Source of the DNA: Deltaproteobacteria bacterium
GTDB lineage: Bacteria > Desulfobacterota > Syntrophia > Syntrophales > JAFGIO01
DNA: 62,370 bases
Assembly: GCA_016929555.1 (NCBI GenBank)
Contig: JAFGIO010000080.1
Coordinates: forward strand, 1 to 62,370
Reading direction: 5' to 3'
Part shown: one piece after another, positions 36,390-57,964 of the stretch
Position numbering within the stretch: the first letter of the stretch is position 1
How the letters are laid out: every line of letters starts with the position of its first letter
Translations under genes and position numbers: made by a program
The notes under the pieces: generated by a model
Seen by the model: only the letters and a program-made list of their open reading frames with translations
Database searches by the model: none
What the model was told of the DNA's origin: nothing

Positions 36390-36928
36390 CGAGAGATAAT
36401 AATTTATGGTGCTCTTCAGTAGGCCTGTCGCTAAAGAAACTACTATTTAGTATTGATTTTAAAAGGATGCTAATGCAATAATAAGTACCGTGCCGAGATG
36501 TATGAAGCAATAACATGTTGATTTCATGGACTTAATACAGGTCATATGGGCCGAAAGATTTATATATACTTGCAATCGCGACCATCTCGCAATGCCACTC
36601 GACATATTAAGAACATATCATGAGCTTTGTGATGGAACGGGTGTTAAACATACGCTTGGCGACGTGTAGAACGTAGAACCCTTCGCTGCATCCGATCACA
36701 GCACTCAGGGCTGCTCAGGGTGAGATTTACAATGGCGTAAACGCTACGCGTCACGTCATCGGCATTGTGGATCGCCATCCGCTTTCAGTCCAGGCGCGCT
36801 ACGCCGGGCCATCAAGCACCTACAGCGGCCAGCCTTCCTTGCGAGTCAGTCCGACGCTGATCCGCGACGCAGTTCGGTACGGATAAATGGTGAATGAAAA
36901 AACCCAAGGGTTGAGGAGATTGTTATTT

Positions 36929-37807
36929 ATGGATATCCCAAAATTTCATGAAACGTTTGTTCCTATTCTTGAAACACTTGCTGATGGCCAAACGATCCAA
37001 CATAAGGAACTACTCAATATGATCGTGAAAAAGTACTATTCACAATTGCCAAAGGAATTGTTGGAGAAGAAAACGAAAACCGGCGACCTTCTAATCCTCA
37101 ACAGGATAGCCTGGGGGAAGTCATACCTGAAAAAAGCAGGATACATTCACTATCCGCAGAGGGGCGCTGTACAAATAACCCAGAAGGGGAAAGAGGTTAA
37201 TAAAGATAAGGTCAATTTGAAGGATATTATAAGCGAATCAGGCATATTCAATTTCTACAAGGAAGAAAAAGCAAAAGAATTGGAAGATTTGGAAATGAAA
37301 GGATCATCGCCTCAAGACTTGATTGAGACCGGCTTCTCAGCGATTGAAGCTCAAGTAAAAGCCGAACTGCTTGATAAGCTTAAGACCATCGATCCATTCT
37401 ACTTCGAAAGGGTTATCCTCACATTGCTGGGCAAAATGGGCTATGGCGAATCCATCGAAACGTCGAAAACAGGCGATGGTGGAATTGATGGAATAATAAA
37501 CCAGGATAAGTTGGGACTGGAAAAAATCTATATTCAAGCAAAAAGGTATAATGAAAATAAAATCAGAGAAAAAGAAATTCGGAATTTTATAGGAGCCATG
37601 AGTGGCGATACCACAAAAGGCGTATTTGTGACCACCTCTGAATTTGACCAGCAAGCAATCAAAAAAGCCCATGATGCGCACCATACGATTATTCTAATCG
37701 ATGGAAAGAAGTTGGTTGATCTTTTGTATCAATATAGTGTTGGAGTGCAGGTTCAAAATACCTATGAAGTGAAAGCCGTTGATGACAATGTCTTTGAAAC
37801 AAATTGA
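36929..37807 (+). CDS. mrr: Mrr-family type IV (modification-dependent) restriction endonuclease
   Basis: N-terminal winged-helix Mrr_N-like region and a C-terminal catalytic core, DGGIDGI...IYIQAKRY. The gene is AT-rich relative to its flanks. Confidence 0.87.
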   Translation: MDIPKFHETFVPILETLADGQTIQHKELLNMIVKKYYSQLPKELLEKKTKTGDLLILNRIAWGKSYLKKAGYIHYPQRGAVQITQKGKEVNKDKVNLKDIISESGIFNFYKEEKAKELEDLEMKGSSPQDLIETGFSAIEAQVKAELLDKLKTIDPFYFERVILTLLGKMGYGESIETSKTGDGGIDGIINQDKLGLEKIYIQAKRYNENKIREKEIRNFIGAMSGDTTKGVFVTTSEFDQQAIKKAHDAHHTIILIDGKKLVDLLYQYSVGVQVQNTYEVKAVDDNVFETN

Positions 37808-37968
37808 TGAAAAGCACTCTTCCGAGCAATAATTCCACGGTACACGGCAGAATATCAGACTGCTTTCATTCCGTTTACTGGCTTTCGTTCTTTTGTAGGG
37901 TCCGTATTTCGCTTGTCAGGCCGTGCCCGTGAATTCGTCGTTTCAAGAGTAAGCCGATTTCAAAACAT

Positions 37969-38271
37969 ATGGATACTGATGATCTGACAGAAATGACTTA
38001 CGAGATAATCACGCGAGCAGGCGATGTACTTGATGTGTTAAGCAACGAGATTGGGGCGTCTGACTCTGACAAAAAGACGGAAGAAGATTTCCTTCGCGAC
38101 GTTTTGTCTCATCTCCGCAAAATACAAAAACCGAGAGAGTATCTTGATTGGAATTATCTTGATCAGATTGATGTTAGGGTATTCTATAATGAGGTCGCTA
38201 GACTTTTAGCTCATGTGGAAATAATCTCCGACACTCCTTACAGACAGAGAGGTAAGCCGGCATTAAAATGA
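37969..38271 (+). CDS. hypothetical acidic 100-aa protein
   Basis: The only support is an uninterrupted ORF between mrr and the methyltransferase. I recognised no motif and saw no clear RBS. Confidence 0.4.
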   Translation: MDTDDLTEMTYEIITRAGDVLDVLSNEIGASDSDKKTEEDFLRDVLSHLRKIQKPREYLDWNYLDQIDVRVFYNEVARLLAHVEIISDTPYRQRGKPALK

Positions 38272-38394
38272 CATTTTCAAGATGAAAAAGAGCAAGAGGG
38301 GACACGTTTATGGTTGGTTCCGAGTTGGTTCCGGGGACAGGATACATAATGCCGCCCACACTCATGGCCCACTGGTCTGCCTTTGCGTGATAGT

Positions 38395-39303
38395 ATGGAG
38401 ACATCAGTACACAGGCTGATCAACGATGACGAGCGGGAACTTGCATATCTGGATGATGCTTCGGCTCATCTTGTCGTCACATCCCCTCCATACTGGAACC
38501 TGAAACGCTATAACGAAAACCAGGACCAGCTTGGCCATATTCAGGATTATGAAGAGTTTCTTTTCGAACTGGAGAAAGTCTGGAGGCATGTCTACAGAAT
38601 CCTTGTTCCAGGAGGAAGGCTTGTCTGCGTAGTCGGCGATGTCTGCGTCGCAAGGCGGGATTTTGGTCGTCATCTCGTCTTTCCCCTTCATGCCGACATT
38701 TGCGTCATCTGTCGGAGGATCGGCTTCGACAACCTGAATCCCATCATCTGGCACAAGATCGCAAACGCTTCCTACGAGGTCGAAAATGGATCGAAGTTTC
38801 TCGGAAAGCCTTATGAGCCGAACGCCATCATCAAAAACGACATGGAATTCATCTTGATGCAGCGAAAACCGGGCGGCTACCGGAAGCCGAACAATCGGCA
38901 GCGAGATGCCAGCAGGATCGAAAAAAGCTCCTTTGACCGATGGTTTCAGCAGATATGGAACATAACGGGCGCATCTACCAGGCATCACCCGGCCCCATTT
39001 CCCCTGGAACTGGCCAATCGGCTTGTCCGCATGTTTTCATTCACGGAAGACACCGTTCTGGACCCCTTCTGCGGCTCCGGTACCACGATGATCGCCGCAC
39101 TGCGGGCCGGACGCAACAGCATTGGGATTGAGATCGATTCAGAATATTGTCGCCTGGCCGCCCGTTATCTCAAAGCGGAGACGTCCGATCTGTTTACAAA
39201 AGCTGAGCTTCGATTCGAAAGGGCACCAACGGAGACAGCCGCGTTCGTGAAAGAAGATTCCGCCCTGTATGAAGTCAGGCCGTCCAAGAACAAACTCGAA
39301 TAA
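38395..39303 (+). CDS. DNA methyltransferase, N4/N6 beta-class (SPPY catalytic motif)
   Basis: Motif IV, VVTSPPYW, comes before motif I, DPFCGSGTT. That is beta-class order. The ATG at 38395 is preferred over the TTG at 38383. Confidence 0.87.
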   Translation: METSVHRLINDDERELAYLDDASAHLVVTSPPYWNLKRYNENQDQLGHIQDYEEFLFELEKVWRHVYRILVPGGRLVCVVGDVCVARRDFGRHLVFPLHADICVICRRIGFDNLNPIIWHKIANASYEVENGSKFLGKPYEPNAIIKNDMEFILMQRKPGGYRKPNNRQRDASRIEKSSFDRWFQQIWNITGASTRHHPAPFPLELANRLVRMFSFTEDTVLDPFCGSGTTMIAALRAGRNSIGIEIDSEYCRLAARYLKAETSDLFTKAELRFERAPTETAAFVKEDSALYEVRPSKNKLE

Positions 39304-48305: not shown

Positions 48306-49802
48306 ATGTTGCGCACCAGAGAGAAATACCACGAGGATTTGTTCGCGATGAAGCCAAACGTTTATATAGGCGGCAAACGGGTGGGGAGGGACGACCACCG
48401 CTTGAGGCCGGGGATAAATGTTCTGGATCTAACCTTTGATCTGGCCCAGGACCCCAAGTGGAAGGGACTTGCCACTGCCGTTTCGCCCTTGACCGGCGGA
48501 GAGATAAACCGCTGGGCCCACCTTCCCCAGAACTCCCGCGATCTGTTGCAGAAGCAGAAACTCATACGTCTCGCCGCTCGCAGGGTCGGCGGGTGTATCC
48601 AGAGATGCATGGGGCACGACGCCGTGAATGCTCTTGCCGTCTATACCAGAGAAGTGGACGAGAAGAAGGGAACCAGCTATCACCAGCGCTTCCTAGACTG
48701 GCTGCGCGACTACCAAGAACGAGACCTGGATGGATGCTGCGCGCAGACCGACAGCAAGGGCGACAGGATGAAGCGGCCCAGTGAGCAACCGGACCCTGAT
48801 GCCTATGTTCACATCGTGGAGGAGCGCAAGGACGGCATTGTGGTGAGCGGGTTCAAGATGTCCATAACTCAGGTGGCCTATGCTGATGAGATCATTGTCA
48901 TTCCAACGCGTGCCCTTACCGCCGAAGATCGCGATTTCGCCGTTGCCTTCTCACTCCCCGGAGACTGGGAGGGTATCAGCCTTGTGACCCGACCGGTTTG
49001 GCTGCGTGATAAGGACAACCCCGATGCGTCTCCGTTTTGCAGGTACGGTGTGTCCGACTCCGTAGTGGTTTTCGACAACGTTTTCGTTCCGAAAGAGCGG
49101 GTCTTCATGTGCGGGGAGTGGGAGTTCGGGAGGCGACTGGCGCTGCTCTTTGCCGATTCCCACCGTCACAGCTACAGCGGATGCAAACCGGGCGTGTCGG
49201 ACATCTTATGCGGCACCACGGCCCTGGCCGCGGAGGCGAACAACATTCACAAGGTAGCACACGTGCGCGAGAAGCTGTCGCAATATGCGGGGGCGGCAGA
49301 ACTCGCCTATGCTGCCGGCGTGGCAGCAGCAGTCTTCGGCGAGAAGACCTCTAGCGGGGTCTTCTTTCCCAACACCATTTACGCCAATGTCGGACGCAGG
49401 ATGACCGGGGAACTTATCTATCATGAGTACAACCTGCTGACAGAGATAGCCGGCGGCATAGCGGTCACCTTGCCCTTCGAGGAGGATTTTCACGCCGATA
49501 AAACCAGGGACTTGCTGAAACGGTTCATTGTGAGGAACTCCAATATATCCGCCGATGATTCCCTCAAGATATGGAAGTTGGTGGAAAACGTCGGTGCTTC
49601 ACCCATGGCGGCTTGGTACGAGATTGCGGGGGTCCACGGCGGAGGCTCGCCAATCATGGAGACCATTGCCCTAAACTTGGAGTACGACTTTGAATCCAAG
49701 AAGAGCCTCGCACGCTACCTCGCGGGCATCAACCCCGACTATGACGATTTGAAGGATATTGGGAGCGAGCCCGTCTTTTCGGGTGACCTGCTCGGGGGAT
49801 AG
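48306..49802 (+). CDS. abfD: 4-hydroxybutyryl-CoA dehydratase / vinylacetyl-CoA isomerase family (4-HPA hydroxylase fold)
   Basis: C-x3-C (GGCIQRC) plus H-x6-C (HRHSYSGC). This matches the [4Fe-4S] ligand pattern I recall for AbfD. 498 aa. Confidence 0.88.
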   Translation: MLRTREKYHEDLFAMKPNVYIGGKRVGRDDHRLRPGINVLDLTFDLAQDPKWKGLATAVSPLTGGEINRWAHLPQNSRDLLQKQKLIRLAARRVGGCIQRCMGHDAVNALAVYTREVDEKKGTSYHQRFLDWLRDYQERDLDGCCAQTDSKGDRMKRPSEQPDPDAYVHIVEERKDGIVVSGFKMSITQVAYADEIIVIPTRALTAEDRDFAVAFSLPGDWEGISLVTRPVWLRDKDNPDASPFCRYGVSDSVVVFDNVFVPKERVFMCGEWEFGRRLALLFADSHRHSYSGCKPGVSDILCGTTALAAEANNIHKVAHVREKLSQYAGAAELAYAAGVAAAVFGEKTSSGVFFPNTIYANVGRRMTGELIYHEYNLLTEIAGGIAVTLPFEEDFHADKTRDLLKRFIVRNSNISADDSLKIWKLVENVGASPMAAWYEIAGVHGGGSPIMETIALNLEYDFESKKSLARYLAGINPDYDDLKDIGSEPVFSGDLLGG

Positions 49803-49923
49803 GGCTGCGAAGACCGATCGAAAGCCGAACCAAAAAAAACAATGCCGAACCTTTATCCGTACATTTTCCGGTACGGATTCCTATCATAAGTTGTTAAAGC
49901 GAAAGTCTTCTTCAGGAAGGGAG

Positions 49924-50697
49924 ATGGATATGAACTACGAAACCATACTGGTGGAAAAAAAGGACGGTATCGCCGTTATCACGTTGAACCGTCCCGAAAA
50001 GCTGAACGCCGTAAACGGAAAAATGCGCCAGGAAGTGGTGGAGGTACTGGACGATCTCGAAAGAGACGATGCCATACGGGTGGTCATTTTTACCGGAGCA
50101 GGCAGGGGATTCTGTGCCGGTGCCGATATCAGTGAATTCGCCGAGAGTGACAAGGACGCATCGGTTCAAGGCAAAATCAACAAGGGCATGCTGATGATGG
50201 CCCGCCATATCTACGACTTTGAAAAACCGGTTATCGGGGCCATCAATGGCGTATCCGCCGGTGACGGCTCCCAGTGGGCCTTGGCTTTCGATCTCAACAT
50301 TGCCTCGGAAAAAGCTCGATTCGGATGGCCCGCCACAGCCCTGGGTATATTGTGACCGTACGGCATCATCCGACTTCCGGTGGAAGTCGGCCGTTTTCGC
50401 GCCAAGGAAGTGCTCATGACCCGAAGATTTCTCTCCGCTCAGGAGGCGTACGAGTGGGGCATCGTGACCAAGGTGGTTTCTCATGAAATGCTTATGGATG
50501 CGGCCTTTGCGTTGGCGGAGGAGATCAAGAAGATGCCGCCTCTGTCGGTAAAAGCGGTCAAACAGGCGGTTAACATGGGAATGGCTGGATATGAGTATGC
50601 CCAGCAGGTTCTCGGCAATCTGCAAAAATCGCAGGATGCAAAAGAAGGGGCCCGGGCGTTTTTGGAAAAGCGAGAGCCGCGTTTTGAGGGCCGTTAG
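49924..50697 (+). CDS. enoyl-CoA hydratase/isomerase (crotonase) family, reading frame interrupted by one in-frame TGA at 50353-50355
   Basis: ORFs 49759-50355 and 50380-50697 are in the same frame. Joined, they give a 257-codon crotonase: VITLNRPEKLNA, FTGAGRGFCAGADI, then FGWPATALGIL-TGA-PYGIIRLPVEVG. It is either a nonsense pseudogene or a recoded gene. Confidence 0.75.
50370..50390 (+). other. perfect 9-bp hairpin with GGT loop, 14 nt downstream of the in-frame TGA (SECIS-like candidate)
   Basis: CCGACTTCC (50370-78), GGT (50379-81), GGAAGTCGG (50382-90). Confidence 0.4.
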
Positions 50698-51128
50698 CCT
50701 TCAGGGTTCCCTTTGCGTTCATAGCTGGGACAGGTGGCTTTGTCCACGACATAGGGCTTTATGTCCAAAATAGGGGTGCCATCGATCATGTCAAGCCCCT
50801 TGACGTGCAGGGTGCCGCCTTCGATGTCAAGGACTTCAAGCACGGACATGCCGATTGGATTGGGGCGATAAGGGGAGCAGATGCTGAAAACCCCCATTGC
50901 CCTGTCTTGATGAGGCGGCCACTGGGTTAAAAGATCCGGGTGAAATTTTGGACTTCGGTGAAAAAGAAAAATAACGACGATTCGCTGCCCTACAGTGATG
51001 TCTTTGAGCCCTCTGGCATATCTTTCATCGATCGCCAGGTCTCCTTCGAGATCTGAAACGCTCCAGTGGCGTGGTACCTTTTGCGAATCGGTGCGCACAA
51101 AACCAATGGGATCCAGTTCTATATTCAT
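50694..51128 (-). CDS. trmO: tRNA (m6t6A37) methyltransferase TrmO/TsaA (YaeB/UPF0066 family)
   Basis: PIGFVRT, RPNPIG and GTPILDIKPY motifs. Its 3' end overlaps the convergent crotonase stop by 4 nt. Confidence 0.87.
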   Translation of the reverse strand: MNIELDPIGFVRTDSQKVPRHWSVSDLEGDLAIDERYARGLKDITVGQRIVVIFLFHRSPKFHPDLLTQWPPHQDRAMGVFSICSPYRPNPIGMSVLEVLDIEGGTLHVKGLDMIDGTPILDIKPYVVDKATCPSYERKGNPEG

Positions 51129-51263: not shown

Positions 51264-52898
51264 CTATCTGCCGAAGGGGCACAGGGGAAAGGTGCAAGTC
51301 GGACATTCCAGACAGAAAGCACCGCTACTCATGCGTGCAAGATCATATCGGGATATGGAGAGACCGGCCAGAAGACGGGGAATGAGCAAATCGAAACTCG
51401 TCGTTTCGAAATACAATGCACCGGCGGGAACTCCAATGACCTGAAGGTCACCGATGCGGGCGAGGAGCGTCATCGCCCCCGGCAATATGGGGGCACCGTA
51501 AAGCATGTCCGTCGCTCCCGCGTCTTCAAGTCCTGTGCGGGTGACATCATCCGGATCGACGGAAAGCCCCCCAGTCGTGACGAGGAGATCGATCTTCTCC
51601 TCGATCAGTTCCCCGATCGCTCCGGCAATGGCTTGGCGATCATCGGGGACGACTCGGGAGTGAAAGTCGTGGGATCCCAATCGCTCCAGTTTGCTTCTGA
51701 TCAGGGGAATGAAGCCGTCTTCCACCAATCCTTCGTACACCTCCGTTCCCGTAACGAGAATACCTACCCGTGCCTGACGGAGGGGAAGAACGGTAAACAA
51801 AGGGTTCCCGTTGAGTACCGCCAAAGCCCTGTTGAGATTCAGACGGGAAAGATAGAGGGGAACGGCCCGCGTTCCACCGATTTTATCGTTCGCGGCAACG
51901 AGGGAATAGCTTTGCCGGCTTGCACACATCACATCGGGGATGCAGTTGAAATCGATCAGGCGGTCTTCATCAACTATGAGAAGACCGTCGCGCGCCGCCG
52001 TGAACGTGACCTTTCCTTCCATCGGCTTTTCCGTGAAGGCGATCCCGTCGCCTGCCATGATCCCGCCGAGCCTAAATGCCGCTTCGTCTTCATGAACCCA
52101 CCCGTTTTCGGTTGAATCGACTCCTTTGACGTAAACGGTTTTCTTTCCCATTGCCAGAAGAAGATCAACGTCCGCCTTTTTTACCACTTGGCCTTTCTTG
52201 AATGCAGGGCCCTTCTCGCTTTTAGGAAGGATACGCGTCATATCGTGGAGAAGGGAATGCCCGACGGCGTCCTGAACGGACAAGGCCACCAGTTCCGGTT
52301 TTTTGTCGAACGAATCGCTTTGGAGAGGGGCAACTTCCCTATAGAGATTTGCACCGCCGCAACCACGGCAGATCCCACCGTCCATAGAAGGATAGGCTTC
52401 GCCGCACTGGGGGCAGATGGCGATGCTACCCTTCGACCGTTTTTTCAAAAAGCGGGTCTGCACGCGGAGATTCTGTATTTTGCAAAGTCTTGCGCCGGCC
52501 TCCCTGATCTGGTCGTAAAGGGCATTGGAATCCTGTTCCTTCTTCGGCTTCAGCTTGAAAAACCATTCCCTGATCGCGGGCCAAGGATCGACGGTCGACG
52601 GATGGAGATAGACACGAACGCCCTTTCCCTCGTTCTTTTCATAGAGCGTCACGGCGTATCGACCGACATTTTCGATCCGAAGCCACCCATTTCCCACCGT
52701 GCAGGGTGTGAGGAGCTGTACGGCATCTGGGAGACAGCTTTCCGTTTCACAGATGACATCGAAGAATTCACCGGAAGGTCTGTTGTTCAGCGCCGTATCA
52801 ACCATGATCCCGCCGATGATCATGCCCGGCGCGACGTGGCCGTGGAATTTCTTCACCAGATGAATGTATTCGTCGAAGGAATAGGGACCGATGTTCAT
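51264..52898 (-). CDS. FmdE-domain protein fused to a zinc ribbon and a molybdopterin-binding (MoCF_biosynth/MogA-like) domain
   Basis: FmdE motif FHGHVAPGMIIGG, zinc ribbon CPQCG...CRGCGG, and C-terminal LLVTTGGLSVDPDD. I chose the internal ATG at 52898. Confidence 0.8.
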   Translation of the reverse strand: MNIGPYSFDEYIHLVKKFHGHVAPGMIIGGIMVDTALNNRPSGEFFDVICETESCLPDAVQLLTPCTVGNGWLRIENVGRYAVTLYEKNEGKGVRVYLHPSTVDPWPAIREWFFKLKPKKEQDSNALYDQIREAGARLCKIQNLRVQTRFLKKRSKGSIAICPQCGEAYPSMDGGICRGCGGANLYREVAPLQSDSFDKKPELVALSVQDAVGHSLLHDMTRILPKSEKGPAFKKGQVVKKADVDLLLAMGKKTVYVKGVDSTENGWVHEDEAAFRLGGIMAGDGIAFTEKPMEGKVTFTAARDGLLIVDEDRLIDFNCIPDVMCASRQSYSLVAANDKIGGTRAVPLYLSRLNLNRALAVLNGNPLFTVLPLRQARVGILVTGTEVYEGLVEDGFIPLIRSKLERLGSHDFHSRVVPDDRQAIAGAIGELIEEKIDLLVTTGGLSVDPDDVTRTGLEDAGATDMLYGAPILPGAMTLLARIGDLQVIGVPAGALYFETTSFDLLIPRLLAGLSISRYDLARMSSGAFCLECPTCTFPLCPFGR

Positions 52899-53083
52899 GA
52901 ACGCATTGCCTCCGGGAAATCGTGCGATAAGGAATAGCGGCAGCAACAATAATTCATAATGAACGCCGATGCAAGAGGGATCACAAGAAAATATCACCTA
53001 TAAAATTATGCGATCAACCTCTTCCATGGAATTCCGAGTTTGCTCCCCGACGACAACCTTGCAATTAAGCGCCATGATGTATC

Positions 53084-53512
53084 TTATCCCCATCGACCCT
53101 TTCCACGACCCATGCTTCTGCCACAACGCCTTCCACGTCCATAACCCCTGCCGCGGCCAGGGTTTGCGCGTCTTCCAAATAAATCCAAAATCTGTAGCAG
53201 CAGGCGATCCCTGCTGGCCCATTGCAAGCCCCGTGGTTCCCAAGAAGGACGGGTGGACGGCGGTATTGCCGCTTTTCGCATCGAGGGGACGCGAGCGGCG
53301 GGAAAAGCGGGCGCATTCTGAAGAGATGGTGGGGATTTTGTCTTTGCCATGAAGATGGCATCCTTGGGGCATTCGTCGATGCATGAGCCGCAATCGATGC
53401 AAATTGCCTTATCCACTTTGGCTACCTTGTTGACGGTTATGGCGTCCACGGGACATACTTGGACACATCTTTCACAACCGGTACACTTTCTTTCGTCGAT
53501 TATAACGGCCAT
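53084..53512 (-). CDS. 2x[4Fe-4S] ferredoxin with Pro/Ser linker and Arg/Gly-rich C-terminal tail
   Basis: CTGCERCVQVCP and CIDCGSCIDECP. The tail is GRGRGYGRGRRCGRSMGRGKGRWG. Two other frames are also open across the tail region, so the tail frame is less certain than the ferredoxin domain. Confidence 0.68.
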   Translation of the reverse strand: MAVIIDERKCTGCERCVQVCPVDAITVNKVAKVDKAICIDCGSCIDECPKDAIFMAKTKSPPSLQNAPAFPAARVPSMRKAAIPPSTRPSWEPRGLQWASRDRLLLQILDLFGRRANPGRGRGYGRGRRCGRSMGRGKGRWG

Positions 53513-53614
53513 TATCCTTGATCTTATTCGTTTATTATTCCTATTCAAGATTCGAACTATCCGGGAGAAAGGGACCCGAATATCGATTCCAACATTCTTT
53601 TCGGATTTTCTTGA

Positions 53615-54217
53615 TCAATCATCTTTCTTTGCCGTAAATAGCAAGGGGAAAACGATGTCGCTTGTACAGCAGGGAATCCAGACCGACAGAAATAAGAATA
53701 ATGCAACCCCCGAGACCATGAAAAAGCCAAAGCCCGTTCCCAAGGCTAAGATCATGTGAAATAAGGATGCCCAGGTGCTTAGCAGCACATGCCCGGCGTG
53801 GGGGAATTTCGTCGTCGGCCGCCAGAAGGCGAAAGCAATTCCGGCGAATGACAGTGGATTGACAAGCCACCACTTCTCAATGAAGCCCAGATGAAGACCC
53901 CTATTGGGCATGTTCAAGAGGATTTCTCCGAGATAAGGGATGATGCAATCGCTTAAACTGCCGATGCCAATAGATCCGAAGTACCCAATCGCAAGCGTCG
54001 TCAAAATCTTGCCTTGACCGTGAAGACGGTACATTCCCGCCGTCACCAAGGCACTGAGAAACACGTGTGCGGGATGTAGAATCCAAAACAGAGTTTCGAA
54101 AAAAGATCTTGATAATTGAATGCTCAGGGAAATCCACATGATGAAGATTCCCGTGATCGTTCCAAATAAAGTAAAGGGCGCGTGAGATTTGAGCTCATAG
54201 GATATAATTTTGAACAT
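53615..54217 (-). CDS. six-TM membrane protein with paired His motifs (HPAH, HAGH), unknown function
   Basis: 200 aa, hydrophobic throughout, with a GAAGGA RBS-like sequence 4 nt upstream. Confidence 0.7.
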   Translation of the reverse strand: MFKIISYELKSHAPFTLFGTITGIFIMWISLSIQLSRSFFETLFWILHPAHVFLSALVTAGMYRLHGQGKILTTLAIGYFGSIGIGSLSDCIIPYLGEILLNMPNRGLHLGFIEKWWLVNPLSFAGIAFAFWRPTTKFPHAGHVLLSTWASLFHMILALGTGFGFFMVSGVALFLFLSVWIPCCTSDIVFPLLFTAKKDD

Positions 54218-54291
54218 GGTGTCCTTCAGGTCCGACCGTCGGAAAAATTCGTAAAATATCTTCGCTCATCGGATTGTTGCAACTGGCGCAG

Positions 54292-54930
54292 TTACTTTTC
54301 TTCTCCTTCCAGTTTCTTCAGTCGCTCCGTGATCTGTTCCATCTGTTTCTTCAAGGTCTCGGCCTGTTCTCTCAGTGCAGCAACTTCAGCCTTTTTATCG
54401 GTGGGTTCCGGAGAAGGGCCAAAGGCTTTATCGGTTGCCTGAGCATTTCCGACACCTTGGCCCATAGACATAACGCGACCGGCTCCGCCTCCCATTCCTC
54501 TACCACCGCCCATACCCATTCCGCGTCCCATACCCATACCACGACCCATGCCTCTGCCGCCGCCCATGCCCGTTCCAAAGTGACTCTGGACATTGGGTCC
54601 GGAGGCGCCGGCAATTGAGCCGGATTTGAACATTTGAACCGCATCCCGTGCCGGCCCCGCGACACCGGTGACAACCTGAATTCCAGCAGCACCGAAGATC
54701 TGAAAGGCGTTTGGGCCGCAATTACCTGTCAGAACGACAGAAACGCCCTTATCTGCCATCAGTTGGGCGGATTGAATGCCGGCGCCGCCACCCACGGCTA
54801 TGTTGGGATTTTGAATCGGTTCGAAATCCAAGGTATCCGGGTCGATGATCAAAAAGTAAGCACATCGACCGAAGCGGGGATCGACCGGATCATCAAGCGT
54901 CGGTCCGCTGGAAGTAACGGCGATTTTCAT
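54292..54930 (-). CDS. NifX/NifB-C-like (dinitrogenase Fe-Mo cofactor biosynthesis domain) protein with Met/Gly/Arg repeat and coiled-coil C-terminus
   Basis: N-terminal MKIAVTS....DPRFGRC..F.I.D...........GGGAGIQ.AQLL...GV..V, typical of PF02579-type domains. It is followed by GMGGGRGMGRGMGMGRGMGMGGGRGMGGG and then EVAALREQAETLKKQMEQITERLKKLE. RBS GGAAGGAG. Confidence 0.85.
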   Translation of the reverse strand: MKIAVTSSGPTLDDPVDPRFGRCAYFLIIDPDTLDFEPIQNPNIAVGGGAGIQSAQLMADKGVSVVLTGNCGPNAFQIFGAAGIQVVTGVAGPARDAVQMFKSGSIAGASGPNVQSHFGTGMGGGRGMGRGMGMGRGMGMGGGRGMGGGAGRVMSMGQGVGNAQATDKAFGPSPEPTDKKAEVAALREQAETLKKQMEQITERLKKLEGEEK

Positions 54931-54934
54931 AGTG

Positions 54935-56767
54935 TCATACTCCTTCCTTTAGTTGGGTTTCGAGTTTACTCCAGAGACGGACGATGGATTCGAACGCCGG
55001 CCCCTTCCCGTATTCAAATACCGTTTTGCCCGCCATGAGGGCCTCGTTCACATTACGGTCAAAGGGAATCTCACCAATGACTTTCGCTCCCATCTTCAGG
55101 GCAATCTCCTCAATCCGATGGGTCTGGTCCGCATTGAGATCGGATTTATTTACGACGATAAGCGATGGAATGCCGAAATGATCTGCAAGATCGAGCACGC
55201 GCTGCATGTCATGAACACCTGAGACCGTGGGTTCCGTAACGATAAGGACCAGATCCGCACCGGTGACGGAGGCGATGACGGGACATCCCGTCCCCGGAGG
55301 TCCGTCGCTGAGAATAAGCTCCTTGCCAATATTCTTGGCAAGCTCCGCGGCGACGTTTCGTACCTTGGTCACCAGGCGTCCGGAATTTTCCTCTGCAATG
55401 CCCAGACGGGCGTGAATCATCGGACCGTAGTCCGTGCCCGACACATACCATTTGCCTACGGTGTTCGGTCTGTCCGTCACTGCATCGAAGTCACAGACAT
55501 ACTCGCATACACCGCATCCCTCACAGGAAAATTCATCAATCCGGAAGGTTTCGACTCCCTGGTCGTTTATCGGGCCATCCGTGTGTACAGCCCCAAATCT
55601 ACAGTGGTCCGCACATTGACCGCAGGCAGTGCATTTATTCGGATCGATGGTCATCTTCAATCCCCCGACGAAATCTTGCGCTTCGCGAATGATGGGATTG
55701 AGGAGCAGATGAAGATCCGCGGCGTCCACATCGTTGTCAGCCAAAACCGTGTTATTGGCGAGCATGGCCAAGGAAGCTACCACTGTGGTTTTTCCCGATC
55801 CCCCTTTGCCGCTGATCACGGCGATTTCCTTGAAGACGGGTGATTCTCCGGGTGAGAACGGATCGAGCTTTCCCGTTTCTACGGAAAACGCCTCTTCAGC
55901 TGGCACATCGGGAGGGACAGTGCCGACCAAGGGTAGTATATCGGAAAAGATGTTCAGAAGGTTTTCCCGAAATTCGGGATAAAGATGCGTTAGTATAGTG
56001 CCGCTTGAATATGATTCGGCGTATTCTCGTTTGAACGGAATGCGTCCGGCGATGGGAACACCTACCCGTCCCGCATAATCCGTGATTAAATGATCGGTCC
56101 CATCCGAGCGGTTGATTACGATGCAGGTTGGTATCTTCTTTTTCAAGGTCATGTTGACGGCGAGTTTGAGATCGTTCAGACCGAATGGCGTCGGTTCCGT
56201 CACCAAGACAGCCACATCCGCGTTGTCTACAGTCTCGACGACGGGACAGGACGTTCCAGGTGATGCATCAATGATATTGATCGCTGCAGGATCGACGAGG
56301 GACTTCACCCTTCGAATGACGGCAGGGGCCATTGCTTCGCCGATGTTCAACGTTCCATGCGCAAAAAAGAAAGGTTGATTTCGTGAAGATATCTCAACAG
56401 TGCCGACAGGAGAGGGTTTATCGCTTAGCGCCCCTTCCGGGCAAACCAGGGAACAAAGCCCGCAGGCGTGACATAGCTCGTTGAAAATCAACACCTTTCC
56501 CTTTACCACGGCAATGGCGTTGTATCGGCATGCCTCCGCGCAATCGCCGCAACCGGTGCATAAGTCTTCGTTCCAGGCAGGCCTCAACACCTCCACGGTT
56601 TTTTGTTTATCGAACTTCGGTTGAACAAACAGATAGTCGTTGGGCTCTTCCACGTCACAGTCCAACAACCTGATGTTTTCGCCGCGATCGGCGAGGGCAT
56701 AGGCCAAGTTGACGCAAAACGTCGTCTTACCCGTTCCGCCCTTGCCGCTGGCAACCGCGATAATCAT
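54935..56767 (-). CDS. tandem fusion of two MinD/ParA-type P-loop ATPases, each with an inserted 2x[4Fe-4S] ferredoxin domain
   Basis: Two deviant Walker A motifs, ASGKGGTGKTT and ISGKGGSGKTT. Four CxxCxxCxxxC(P) motifs. I chose the ATG at 56767. Confidence 0.88.
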   Translation of the reverse strand: MIIAVASGKGGTGKTTFCVNLAYALADRGENIRLLDCDVEEPNDYLFVQPKFDKQKTVEVLRPAWNEDLCTGCGDCAEACRYNAIAVVKGKVLIFNELCHACGLCSLVCPEGALSDKPSPVGTVEISSRNQPFFFAHGTLNIGEAMAPAVIRRVKSLVDPAAINIIDASPGTSCPVVETVDNADVAVLVTEPTPFGLNDLKLAVNMTLKKKIPTCIVINRSDGTDHLITDYAGRVGVPIAGRIPFKREYAESYSSGTILTHLYPEFRENLLNIFSDILPLVGTVPPDVPAEEAFSVETGKLDPFSPGESPVFKEIAVISGKGGSGKTTVVASLAMLANNTVLADNDVDAADLHLLLNPIIREAQDFVGGLKMTIDPNKCTACGQCADHCRFGAVHTDGPINDQGVETFRIDEFSCEGCGVCEYVCDFDAVTDRPNTVGKWYVSGTDYGPMIHARLGIAEENSGRLVTKVRNVAAELAKNIGKELILSDGPPGTGCPVIASVTGADLVLIVTEPTVSGVHDMQRVLDLADHFGIPSLIVVNKSDLNADQTHRIEEIALKMGAKVIGEIPFDRNVNEALMAGKTVFEYGKGPAFESIVRLWSKLETQLKEGV

Positions 56768-56963
56768 TTGTCTCCGCAATCCTTTCTGTCGATATTCCAC
56801 AAAATCAACGAAAACTCCGTGCGGTCCAATTCACCCAGAGAAGGGGTTGATTTTTTCACCAAAACAACGAATTCTCCGCGGCAGCTGCGAGGATTGAATC
56901 CCTTTATCGCACACCGCGGTAGCTTCAGTGAGATTCGGTCATCGTGGGCGACCGTATGATGCA

Positions 56964-57001
56964 CCAGGACAAGCCGGCATACATCTGGAGGCTTGTCCTG
57001 G
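56964..57001 (-). other. perfect 12-bp intercistronic stem-loop
   Basis: CCAGGACAAGCC (56964-75) pairs with GGCTTGTCCTGG (56990-57001) around a 14-nt loop. No U-tract follows on the minus strand. It lies 39 nt beyond the stop of the DUF5320-like gene. Confidence 0.6.
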
Positions 57002-57040
57002 GCAATTTCTTATGTTGGAAGCAGCTTAAGGCTTCCTGCC

Positions 57041-57385
57041 TTAGGAATGTTCGGCTTCCAAATCTCCAATCCGTTTGTTGATTTCCGAAAGGGCAGCCTC
57101 GAAATACTTTGCCTGTTCCTGAAGCGCATCGATTTCCTGTTGTCGAGTCGGTGCGGCACCGTAAGGAACCGCGGACGGCATGCCGTATCCGTATGCGAAA
57201 TAAGGGATACCCCAGCGTCTACCGCGGCCTCCGCGGAAACCGAGGCCCATACCGCGGCCAAAGCCGAATCCCCGACCCGGAATCTGATTCGCGAATCCTG
57301 GCATGGGATATCCAGCGCAATACCCCGCGGCTCGTCCCGTCATGGGTCCCCATCCTGCGGGACCCGTTCCATCTCCACCTGGCAT
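57041..57385 (-). CDS. DUF5320-like protein B (conserved N-terminus, RG/FG repeat, C-terminal coiled coil)
   Basis: N-terminus MPGGDGTGPAGWGPMTGRAAGYCAGYPMPGF, repeat GRGFGFGRGMGLGFRGGRGRRWG, and coil QQEIDALQEQAKYFEAALSEINKRIGDLEAE. RBS GGAGGTG. Confidence 0.8.
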   Translation of the reverse strand: MPGGDGTGPAGWGPMTGRAAGYCAGYPMPGFANQIPGRGFGFGRGMGLGFRGGRGRRWGIPYFAYGYGMPSAVPYGAAPTRQQEIDALQEQAKYFEAALSEINKRIGDLEAEHS

Positions 57386-57437
57386 TTTACACCTCCGTTT
57401 TTCTAAATTTTATAGATTCAATGCGGCTCGATCTCTT

Positions 57438-57746
57438 TTACCAAAACCAGCGACCACGGCCGCGAGCGAAACCGAAGCCACGACCTCGACCGAAACCGCG
57501 ACCCCGGCCGAAGCCGAAACCGCGTCCAAACCCGGCACCAGAGCCCCATCCGAATCCAGGCACACCCCATGTCCTATAGGCGAAGGGCGGCGAGTAGGTC
57601 CGGTCAGGAATAAAACTGCCATATCCCTGCCATATCCCTGGGCCTTGATTCATGAAACCTGGCATCGGGTACCCTGCGCAGTAACCCGCGCTTCGTCCCG
57701 TCATGGGCTCCAGCCTAGCGGGACCCGTTCGATCACCACCTGGCAT
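57438..57746 (-). CDS. DUF5320-like protein A (conserved N-terminus, long RG/FG tail, no coiled coil)
   Basis: N-terminus MPGGDRTGPARLEPMTGRSAGYCAGYPMPGF, tail GFGRGFGFGRGRGFGRGRGFGFARGRGRWFW. RBS AAGGAGG. Confidence 0.8.
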   Translation of the reverse strand: MPGGDRTGPARLEPMTGRSAGYCAGYPMPGFMNQGPGIWQGYGSFIPDRTYSPPFAYRTWGVPGFGWGSGAGFGRGFGFGRGRGFGRGRGFGFARGRGRWFW

Positions 57747-57948
57747 AATAACCTCCTTAACTTTTTCGACCGTTTACTGATTGCGGGCTTGCGCCTCTAA
57801 AAAACAGCGCCAGCCCATCTCCAATTCGCCATTCAAGTTGGCGTCGATCCGTCGATCCTCCTGATCGGATAGCAATGAAGCCACTTGAAAACGATCAACA
57901 TCGTTTACGCAAGACTGCGGCTTGCGTTAAACCGTTTTGAATGAACTT

Positions 57949-57964
57949 GGCATTTTCCGTGCCA
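57949..57964 (-). promoter_or_regulatory. sigma-54 (-24/-12) promoter candidate upstream of the DUF5320 cluster
   Basis: The minus strand reads TGGCACG-GAAA-ATGCC, against the consensus TGGCACG-N4-TTGCW. It lies about 200 nt upstream of the ATG at 57746. The core is near-palindromic, so orientation is not fixed by sequence alone. Confidence 0.45.

Follow-up and report, generated by a model that had tools for sequence, protein, structure and literature searches.

Arg/Gly Segments on Several Proteins of an orp-Type Gene Cluster in a Syntrophales Bacterium

Introduction

The locus studied here raises a simple question: why should functionally distinct proteins encoded side by side share segments made largely of Arg and Gly (RG segments)? 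It lies in a Deltaproteobacteria bacterium (Syntrophales, JAFGIO01; assembly GCA_016929555.1, contig JAFGIO010000080.1), within a stretch of 62,370 nt that was analysed as a whole and is called the window in what follows. Six successive open reading frames (ORFs) of the minus strand encode two small proteins of the family DUF5320 (Pfam PF17253), here called A and B, a double ATPase, a NifX-like protein, a membrane protein and a ferredoxin, and RG segments are encoded by four of the six. The initial annotation of this DNA had taken the cluster for uncharacterised and had proposed the RG segments as tags for co-assembly, possibly on a polyanion. Sequence comparison now gives good support to an orp-type cluster, i.e., an anaerobe-specific, sigma-54-type relative of the genes for the ORange Protein (ORP) complex. 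For the segments we favor, tentatively, a role as common handles for an anionic metal-sulfide species.

Storage of iron and sulfur as thioferrate has, to our knowledge, been shown for IssA alone. The IssA protein of Pyrococcus furiosus (PF2025) joins a NifX-like domain (IPR003731) to a disordered tail of 70 residues in which Gly, Arg and aromatics abound and Cys are few, with a pI of 10.7 (PMC5524996). In the model proposed, this tail wraps anionic thioferrate and nucleates particles of 20–300 nm (PMC5524996; Vaccaro et al. 2017). The same authors named an uncharacterised clade, "IssX," with Gly-rich cationic tails (PMC5524996). The ORP complex of Desulfovibrio vulgaris Hildenborough (DvH) includes Orp3, Orp4, Orp5, Orp8 (ORP itself) and Orp9 (MrpORP), which co-purify as a complex; Orp3 and Orp4 are MinD-like paralogues, each with two [4Fe-4S] ferredoxin motifs, and ORP holds a Mo-Cu-S cluster of the [S2MoS2CuS2MoS2]3- type (PMC6345978). 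The orp operons of DvH depend on sigma-54 and are under the control of OrpR, a redox-sensing enhancer-binding protein (EBP), and the function of the complex was still called unclear in 2021 (PMC8359166).

Results

The Cluster and Its Identity

In order of transcription, the cluster consists of the genes for DUF5320 proteins A (57438–57746, 102 aa) and B (57041–57385, 114 aa), the double ATPase (54935–56800, 621 aa from a GTG), the NifX-like protein (54292–54930, 212 aa), the membrane protein (53615–54217, 200 aa) and the ferredoxin (53084–53548, 154 aa from a TTG), all on the minus strand and separated by spacers of 4–240 nt. Both the positions and the quoted RG strings of the initial annotation are found verbatim in the translations. 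Its length of 610 aa for the ATPase holds from the ATG at 56767, but not for the called ORF, which starts at the GTG. For the ferredoxin, the orthologues favor the ATG at 53512 (142 aa), which is likely the true start. Terminator-like sites across the region are no more frequent than in shuffled sequences, which makes co-transcription plausible; a split of the operon by internal terminators is rejected on the same count.

The NifX-like domain (PF02579, 81 bits) has as its best solved relative the ORP of Desulfovibrio gigas (2WFB_A, E = 5e-24, about 54 of 112 aligned residues identical, ~48%), followed by MTH1175. The ATPase is a fused pair of MinD/ParA-type modules, each with an inserted 2x[4Fe-4S] ferredoxin domain. 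Pfam identifies in it two CbiA domains (E = 2.9e-33), ParA and four Fer4 stretches, and the two deviant Walker A motifs, already noted in the initial annotation, start at residues 19 (GKGGTGKT) and 331 (GKGGSGKT); the earlier domain calls for A, B, the carrier and the ferredoxin are equally borne out by Pfam. This description fits the one published for Orp3 and Orp4.

Related loci provide the third line of evidence. A scan of a genome collection anchored on DUF5320, in which ORFs were classed by hidden Markov models (HMMs) seeded from the window, gave 80 loci (cited below by numbers such as L001) from Desulfobacterota, Planctomycetota, Verrucomicrobiota, Chloroflexota, Spirochaetota, Firmicutes, Omnitrophota, KSB1, NC10, Atribacterota and one archaeon. 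NifX-like genes are found within 6 kb of DUF5320 in 67/80 loci, MinD-ferredoxin ATPases, separate or fused, in 54, small ferredoxins in 17 and PAS-sigma54 EBPs in 22. The EBP of L001 contains a C-x9-C-x3-C triad resembling C52/C61/C65 of OrpR. Proteins with the Mrp-NifX architecture of MrpORP occur in 13/80 loci, and four of them score 518–542 bits against an NCBIfam equivalog cut-off of 450 bits. The gene order of the window (double ATPase, NifX/DUF5320, six-transmembrane [6TM] protein, ferredoxin) is found again in L097, with a fused ATPase of 624 aa, and loci anchored independently on the 6TM protein display the same cluster. Given the ORP-like carrier, the Orp3/4-like ATPase and relatives with MrpORP, EBPs and sigma-54 sites, the cluster is better described as orp-type than as uncharacterised.

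A candidate -24/-12 site (TGGCACGGAAAATGCC, 57949–57964, minus strand) is found upstream of gene A at a distance of 218 nt. With two mismatches to TGGCAC-N5-TTGCW, it is weak taken alone, and a strict consensus search allowing at most one mismatch does not pick it up. Its support comes only from a relaxed pattern, TGGCA[CT]-N5-[AT]TGC, and from positional conservation in relatives: the pattern has 36 sites in 1.24 Mb of related loci, ~20 of which are 11–120 nt upstream of the first NifX/DUF5320 gene. A sigma-54-type promoter, as supposed in the initial annotation, is thus plausible for the window cluster. The site doubles as a perfect palindrome, TGGCA-N7-TGCCA (57948–57964), which could be a regulator-binding site, instead of or besides a promoter.

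RG Segments and the DUF5320 Architecture

RG segments were defined by a fixed criterion (20 consecutive residues with R ≥ 4, G ≥ 7 and R + G ≥ 12). Only A, B, the NifX-like protein and the ferredoxin have one among the 63 gene calls of the window; the ATPase is without. Their presence on four proteins therefore stands, but they are not four independent tails, since three of them belong to DUF5320 (PF17253, gathering threshold 27 bits). The architecture of this family is an N-terminal MPxGDxTGPxGxGPMTGRxAGyCAGy motif with one invariant Cys, an RG segment of the type PGRGxGFGRGmGlGFRGGRG, a Tyr/Pro linker and a helix. Protein B matches the model over its full length (95.4 bits) and has all three elements, that is, the Cys motif, a central RG/aromatic segment (PGRGFGFGRGMGLGFRGGRGRRWG) and, after a Tyr/Pro/Ala linker, the C-terminal helix. 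Its RG stretch, previously taken for a tail, is thus central and a conserved part of the family. Protein A shares with B 26 of 31 N-terminal residues, as noted earlier, and matches the model in its N-terminal half only (41.8 bits, residues 1–58). After the MPGGDxTGP...AGYCAGY motif with its one Cys comes a linker rich in Pro and Tyr, and the protein closes with a (G-F-G-R-G)n tail whose end is RWFW (pI 12; 41% Gly, 18% Arg, 27% aromatics); the helix and any coiled coil are lacking. At least two DUF5320 genes, with A-type next to B-type paralogues, are found in 33/80 loci (e.g., L004 7533–7892).

The NifX-like protein combines an ORP-type domain (residues 1–108), a (GRGM)n segment with a core of pI 12, 59% Gly and 7 Met in 32 residues, and a C-terminal coil. 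Its C-terminal half matches PF17253 (34.7 bits, E = 4e-8, residues 119–207 on profile positions 6–99), with the RG stretch and helix of DUF5320 present and the Cys motif absent. On this profile match the protein is a NifX-DUF5320 fusion, an architecture found in 15/80 loci, which explains the coil that it has in common with B. In the ferredoxin, a 2x[4Fe-4S] domain (Pfam Fer4 families) is followed by a linker and then by the conserved helix motif LLLQILDLFGR, and the protein ends in an RG tail (GRGRGYGRGRRCGRSMGRGKGRWG, pI 12). This tail has no match to the DUF5320 model at E ≤ 0.01 and is, by these profile comparisons, the only separate low-complexity tail among the four segments. Orthologues in L096, L097, L007 and L001 keep the helix motif (LLxQIFDFLGR in L096 and L097) and have RG tails of varying sequence.

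Several frames are open across the repeats on both strands, and one could suspect mis-framed translation as the source of the RG stretches, or a neutral low-complexity expansion in G+C-rich repeats. However, among eight orthologues of B the differences within the RG segment at codon positions 1, 2 and 3 are 0.21, 0.19 and 0.64, and this third-position excess (0.64 vs 0.2) fits the called frame. Protein B has 6,877 homologues, the best 120 of which all keep the segment, and within DUF5320 the segment is conserved position by position, with residues invariant across phyla. In addition, the segments are confined to specific families; the ATPases and EBPs encoded in these loci have none. The codon positions and the conservation indicate segments that are translated and under purifying selection; both the artefact and the neutral expansion are rejected on these two grounds, and their probability is close to nil. 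Mis-framing and the absence of the tails from orthologous clusters had been named in the initial annotation as findings that would count against its proposal, and the opposite is observed on both points. Two long frames opposite the repeats (57109–57579 and 57303–57800, plus strand), with strings of the PRPRPKPRP type, arise from the repeat itself as a by-product and might lead gene callers astray.

Distribution of RG Segments among Families

Rates of RG segments were computed over 83 related loci and differ strongly between families. Segments are found in 106/125 DUF5320 proteins, in 20/126 NifX-like proteins (Fisher p = 2e-11 against the unclassified background), in 8/25 small ferredoxins (p = 2e-8) and in 5/6 NifX-ferredoxin fusions, and in none of the 104 ATPases or 25 EBPs. 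Of the unclassified ORFs, 15/983 have one, and about 11 of these 15 are inside clusters, where they reveal helix-turn-helix (HTH) proteins of the family DUF134 and small Zn-ribbon proteins as further tail-bearing families. The recurrence of RG segments on different partner proteins of orthologous clusters across phyla, which the initial annotation had put forward as a check, is thus observed. In all, the segments are borne by DUF5320, three NifX subtypes, ferredoxin, DUF134 and Zn-ribbon proteins.

The NifX-like proteins of these loci end in different ways. Type 1 has a ..MPGC..RRRRFRGGR tail, which is Arg-rich in 25/25 cases. Type 2, the ORP-like type of the window, continues after ..PNVQSHFGMG with (GRGM)n in 16/34 cases, the coil being optional, and type 3 has a Cys/His-rich end without a tail. 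Across phyla, (GRGM)n is specific to type 2 and to a second NifX of the IssA loci (see following). In seven loci (L009, L013, L023, L042, L058, L059 and L061) NifX, (GRGM)n, coil and ferredoxin form a single polypeptide, providing a Rosetta-stone link between two tail-bearing genes of the window. Met-rich motifs bind Cu(I) in proteins of the CusF/CopA type. The 7 Met of the window segment, together with the specificity of (GRGM)n, could then suggest that the tail of the ORP-type carrier binds Cu(I) and feeds or buffers a Mo-Cu cluster such as that of ORP (PMC6345978), the other RG segments being functionally unrelated. We consider this very unlikely, because the tail is present in fewer than half of the type 2 proteins, because the cluster-binding ORP of D. 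gigas ends exactly where the tail would begin, and because the segments with F, W or Y on the other partners would stay unexplained.

The neighborhood of the clusters is centred on iron, sulfur and Mo. Unbiased clustering of the remaining ORFs near DUF5320 gives ARMT1-like (21 loci), MBL-fold (16), CoADR-rhodanese (16), radical S-adenosylmethionine (SAM; 15), SAM methyltransferase (14), Fur (12), IscU-like (10) and DnaJ (10) families, and FeoB adjoins the cluster in L097. Most of the Fur-family regulators (L073 7266–7739 and 11 other loci) have a conserved N-terminal extension of the form ..WWHGRFRGxGYR. In two metagenome-assembled genomes of Desulfobacterota, transporters of the ModABC-like molybdate/tungstate type, with a TOBE-domain ATPase, a permease and SBP_bac_11 binding proteins, stand directly beside DUF5320/NifX clusters (L001 1319–5142 and L096 10302–12603). 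A domain with the motif GYHPxGYxIDKTAxPMDRYTxW, which corresponds to no Pfam model, also occurs near DUF5320 clusters (13 matches in the loci, e.g., L001 9597–10124 and L004 8481–8744).

The DUF134 (UPF0251) proteins bring nucleic acids into the picture, since 11/13 of those in clusters have Arg/Gly(/His)-rich C-terminal tails (among the DUF134 proteins are L050 14215–14598, L076 14781–15173, L085 13903–14277, L031 4415–4894 and L091 752–1108). ParA/MinD ATPases often operate on the nucleoid. The RG segments could accordingly be binders of RNA, DNA or G-quadruplexes (G4), similar to RGG boxes, that tether ORP proteins to nucleoid or transcripts. This would agree with an archaeal motif scan that flagged DUF5320 and DUF134 as candidate G4-binding RG-domain proteins (PMC7565180), with the description of the ORP complex as "putatively involved in cell division" (PMC6345978) and with the morphological defects that follow the loss of OrpR (PMC8359166). 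On the other hand, the segments are found on carriers of metal clusters and on ferredoxins rather than on nucleic-acid enzymes, the neighborhood is the one just described, Met-rich (GRGM)n is atypical of RGG boxes, and the closest characterised tail, that of IssA, goes with an inorganic polymer (PMC5524996). Hence nucleic-acid tethering seems to us distinctly unlikely.

Some of the Zn-ribbon proteins join a DUF5320-like N-terminus and an RG stretch to a C-terminal CxCPxCG...CPKCG zinc ribbon (L033 8021–8338, L038 2231–2506, L073 9342–9587, L084 2308–2577 and L026 10914–11486). A profile search puts this family at 3,519 proteins or more, and NCBI labels some of them DUF5320; among the best 120 of the 3,519, none is labelled Desulfovibrio. 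Two MinD-ferredoxin ATPase genes follow directly after the gene in L033 and L073, an arrangement like that of orp5 in orp5-orp4-orp3, and these variants may be the Orp5/Dde_3197 ([2Fe-2S]) family.

Deviant-Walker-A ATPases can have small partners that are disordered plus coiled coil, as is McdB. In the window, B is encoded just upstream of the ATPase gene. Its AlphaFold2 model has mostly low confidence over residues 1–78 (block-mean pLDDT 41–58) and a confident helix at 81–113, so that it too is predicted to be a disordered cationic region plus a helix. DUF5320 could then be an adaptor of the MinD/ParA-type ATPase, like McdB, ParB or MinE, or the segments could be protein-protein stickers in an Arg-aromatic condensate that has no inorganic bridge. 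This corresponds to the co-assembly tag proposed in the initial annotation. The Zn-ribbon genes at the position of orp5, the aromatic-rich A-type tails with Trp at the end and the existence of an ORP protein complex (PMC6345978) would all fit. Two observations go the other way. None of the 104 ATPases carries a segment, and all segments are predicted to be strongly cationic, with pI ~12, so they should repel each other unless a counter-ion is present. Stickers or adaptors of this kind are, in our judgment, rather unlikely.

Comparison with IssA Loci

IssA orthologues were recovered from metagenomes with the published primer-derived N-terminus (loci L087–L095). There are nine, all on hydrothermal metagenome contigs, eight of 192–210 aa and one truncated at the contig end. 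Their layout is a Pro/Tyr-rich stretch, (G-W/F-G-R-G)n, LGYCPWTG and a GWW end. In an unadjusted local alignment with these IssA-like tails, protein A beats 500/500 composition-preserving shuffles (z = 5.2–5.6). IssA is followed in these loci by a second NifX-like gene with a tail of the form (GRGM)n...GRGRGGW (e.g., L090 2796–3287 and L089 6270–6725), so that RG tails within the IssA locus are not limited to a single protein. There are also a TrmO-like gene and an MBL-fold gene, with FeoB in L089, and a locus of the Thermococcales type contains a DUF134 gene whose RG stretch (MPRGMGQGWGRGRGRRRK) is N-terminal and not C-terminal. The gene content of IssA loci thus parallels that of the bacterial DUF5320 loci.

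The Membrane Protein, Noncoding Regions and Neighboring Genes

The membrane protein (53615–54217) has no Pfam or NCBIfam match. It has six helices and the motifs HPAH (residue 48) and HAGH (residue 140), as stated in the initial annotation. Its 7,711 homologues are 60–80% identical across phyla, with H12, H48, H51, D90, H109, H140, H143, C183 and C184 among the invariant residues. The AlphaFold2 model is confident (pLDDT 90, pTM 0.85), and no significant match to its fold is found in the PDB (best E 0.8). L096 and L097 show synteny of the gene with the cluster, and 4/80 DUF5320-anchored loci contain it. It probably represents an undescribed family of metal-handling membrane proteins, and in any case a very widespread one, with a conserved His/Cys/Asp site and neither family assignment nor solved structural relative.

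The longest spacer, 240 nt between B and the ATPase gene (56801–57040, minus strand), is structured. Its minimum free energy, -91.3 kcal/mol, compares with a mean of -70.0 among shuffled sequences (z = -4.6; 0/200 of them equally stable), and it contains a perfect 12-bp hairpin. A scan of the window at Rfam gathering scores gave no match, this spacer included, and a riboswitch or other known RNA is rejected at that level; nor did the terminator scan report a terminator-like site in the spacer. The spacer may act in processing or stability and so govern how much of the small proteins is made relative to ATPase.

Downstream of the ferredoxin gene, on the same strand and after a gap of 86 nt, Pfam identifies a gene for FmdE, a treble-clef Zn finger and MoCF_biosynth (MoeA/MogA-like; 51264–52997), and the minus-strand block ends with a TrmO-like (TsaA/UPF0066) gene (50694–51128; Pfam TrmO_N, TIGR00104). 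Both probably belong to the unit. The FmdE-MoCF gene is not a core component of the cluster; FmdE genes are also near DUF5320 in L004 and L065. TrmO-like genes are within 6 kb of DUF5320 in 8/80 loci and stand beside IssA orthologues in L089 and L090. Elsewhere in the window, translations read by eye show a crotonase (enoyl-CoA hydratase)-like gene apparently split over two frames (49759–50355 and 50380–50697, plus strand), which points to a frameshift, a pseudogene or an assembly error. A low-GC stretch (0.46) with genes for an Mrr-type restriction endonuclease and an N6/N4 DNA methylase (36887–39303, plus strand) suggests a small mobile defence island.

Discussion

We favor the reading that the RG segments serve the partners as common handles for a polyanion, with an anionic metal-sulfide species as the site of their assembly. 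The reading goes by analogy with IssA, and we hold it tentatively, at a little under an even chance. The cationic Gly/Arg segments of A, B, the NifX-like carrier and the ferredoxin, spaced by aromatics or Met, would act as has been proposed for the IssA tail. Disordered alone, they would bind electrostatically along a common inorganic anion, which might be a (FeS2-)n chain resembling thioferrate or else, as with the cluster of ORP, be of the thiomolybdate/tungstate type. Such binding would gather the carrier, the electron donor and the small scaffold proteins on one particle. The coiled coils of DUF5320 would add oligomerisation and valency, their single invariant Cys may supply a ligand, and the ATPase would drive the loading or release of clusters. 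The segments keep their composition, and in part their position, although they are predicted to be disordered; this fits folding on a ligand, and their like charges favor a bridging anion over direct contact between tails. To this extent the suggestion of a polyanion in the initial annotation accords, by analogy, with the published model of the IssA tail on thioferrate (PMC5524996).

Several points weigh against this reading or the identity on which it builds. In an HMM search of the 62-kb window there is neither an MrpORP (the Mrp-NifX protein) nor an EBP, adjacent or otherwise. The NifX-like protein of the window falls outside the IssA and IssX criteria of Vaccaro et al. (pI ≥ 9, or ≥ 8 for IssX; Gly ≥ 20%, or ≥ 10% for IssX, of the last 40 residues; fewer than 5 Cys), with a pI of 7.75 and 2% Gly over its final 40 residues, the latter since the protein ends in the coil; its 2 Cys are within the limit. 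The Pfam model of DUF5320 does not match the IssA-like proteins, and composition-adjusted BLASTP of IssA tails against DUF5320 returns nothing significant (E = 48). The resemblance may therefore be convergent. Homology between the IssA tail and DUF5320 is rejected, leaving only the unadjusted similarity of pattern, and with no detectable homology of the tails we claim a functional analogy only: the segments would work like the IssA tail, and no membership is implied. Anion binding itself is something we infer by analogy, and even the contact between the IssA tail and thioferrate is a model and not a structure (PMC5524996). For the DNA-binding DUF134 proteins with the same tails, nucleic-acid binding fits equally well. 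Lastly, an anion of the Fe-S and one of the Mo/W-S type fit alike.

A broader proposal, which we regard as unlikely, would unite orp clusters, IssA loci and DUF5320 in one anaerobe system that builds and handles a cytoplasmic granule or condensate of metal sulfide (thioferrate or thiometallate). Short cationic segments of Gly, Arg and aromatics, or Met, would then be a portable "cargo code" recruiting carriers, ferredoxins, DUF134 regulators and small scaffolds to the anionic mineral, and it would fall to the MinD/ParA-type Orp3/4 ATPases to load the particle, remodel it or position it. If true, this would give the ORP complex a function.

Parts of this picture are already known, namely the IssA tail and the ORP complex. 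The statement in the initial annotation that nothing comparable had been described was too strong, given the published IssA/IssX tails (PMC5524996) and the flagged RG domains of DUF5320 and DUF134 (PMC7565180). In the open-access literature searched, mentions of DUF5320 are unrelated to this system and its neighborhood is not treated, and the articles on ORP mention neither DUF5320 nor RG segments. Within that literature, three things appear undescribed: the spread of IssA-like cationic segments over at least five co-encoded families, a free-standing tail or scaffold in the form of DUF5320, and the link between orp and IssA. This link rests on NifX-like domains, common neighbors (TrmO-like, MBL-fold and DUF134 proteins) and cationic RG segments, and it places an orphan family with thousands of members, DUF5320, within the orp/IssA system. 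Should the RG segments prove to be polyanion handles, there would be a testable mechanism by which anaerobes hold and deliver reactive Fe-S or Mo/W-S species, and the RG segment would be a simple sequence signature with which to find more components.

How does the cluster compare with known systems? Eukaryotic RGG/RG motifs are likewise disordered stretches of Arg, Gly and aromatics that bind polyanions multivalently and form condensates; for these motifs and for McdB there is no evidence of homology with the window proteins, whose context is the handling of metal clusters. The NifX, NafY and NifB C-terminal domains have PF02579 in common with the NifX-like protein and carry anionic Fe-S(-Mo) clusters, for the most part with no Cys as ligand. 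Unlike these nitrogenase carriers, the window protein has ORP and MTH1175 as its first-ranking solved relatives, and its neighbors are of the orp type.

The comparison with IssA is divided between two proteins. Protein A resembles the IssA tail in having, in the same order, a Pro/Tyr-rich stretch, G-aromatic-G-R-G repeats and a Trp end. In the window, however, this aromatic RG tail is on a separate protein with the N-terminal Cys motif of DUF5320, whereas the NifX-like protein itself differs from IssA in having Met and not aromatics as spacers of its RG stretch, and a coiled coil after it. The unit also includes, unlike IssA, MinD-ferredoxin ATPases, a tailed ferredoxin and a membrane protein. 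With respect to the DvH orp genes, the window differs in the fusion of Orp3 and Orp4 into one protein, and ORP itself has no tail. The likenesses to the ORP systems are the close identity of the NifX-like domain with D. gigas ORP, and, with DvH, the MinD-type ATPases with two [4Fe-4S] motifs per module, a small protein gene ahead of the ATPase genes and a sigma-54-type promoter, which in the window is a candidate.

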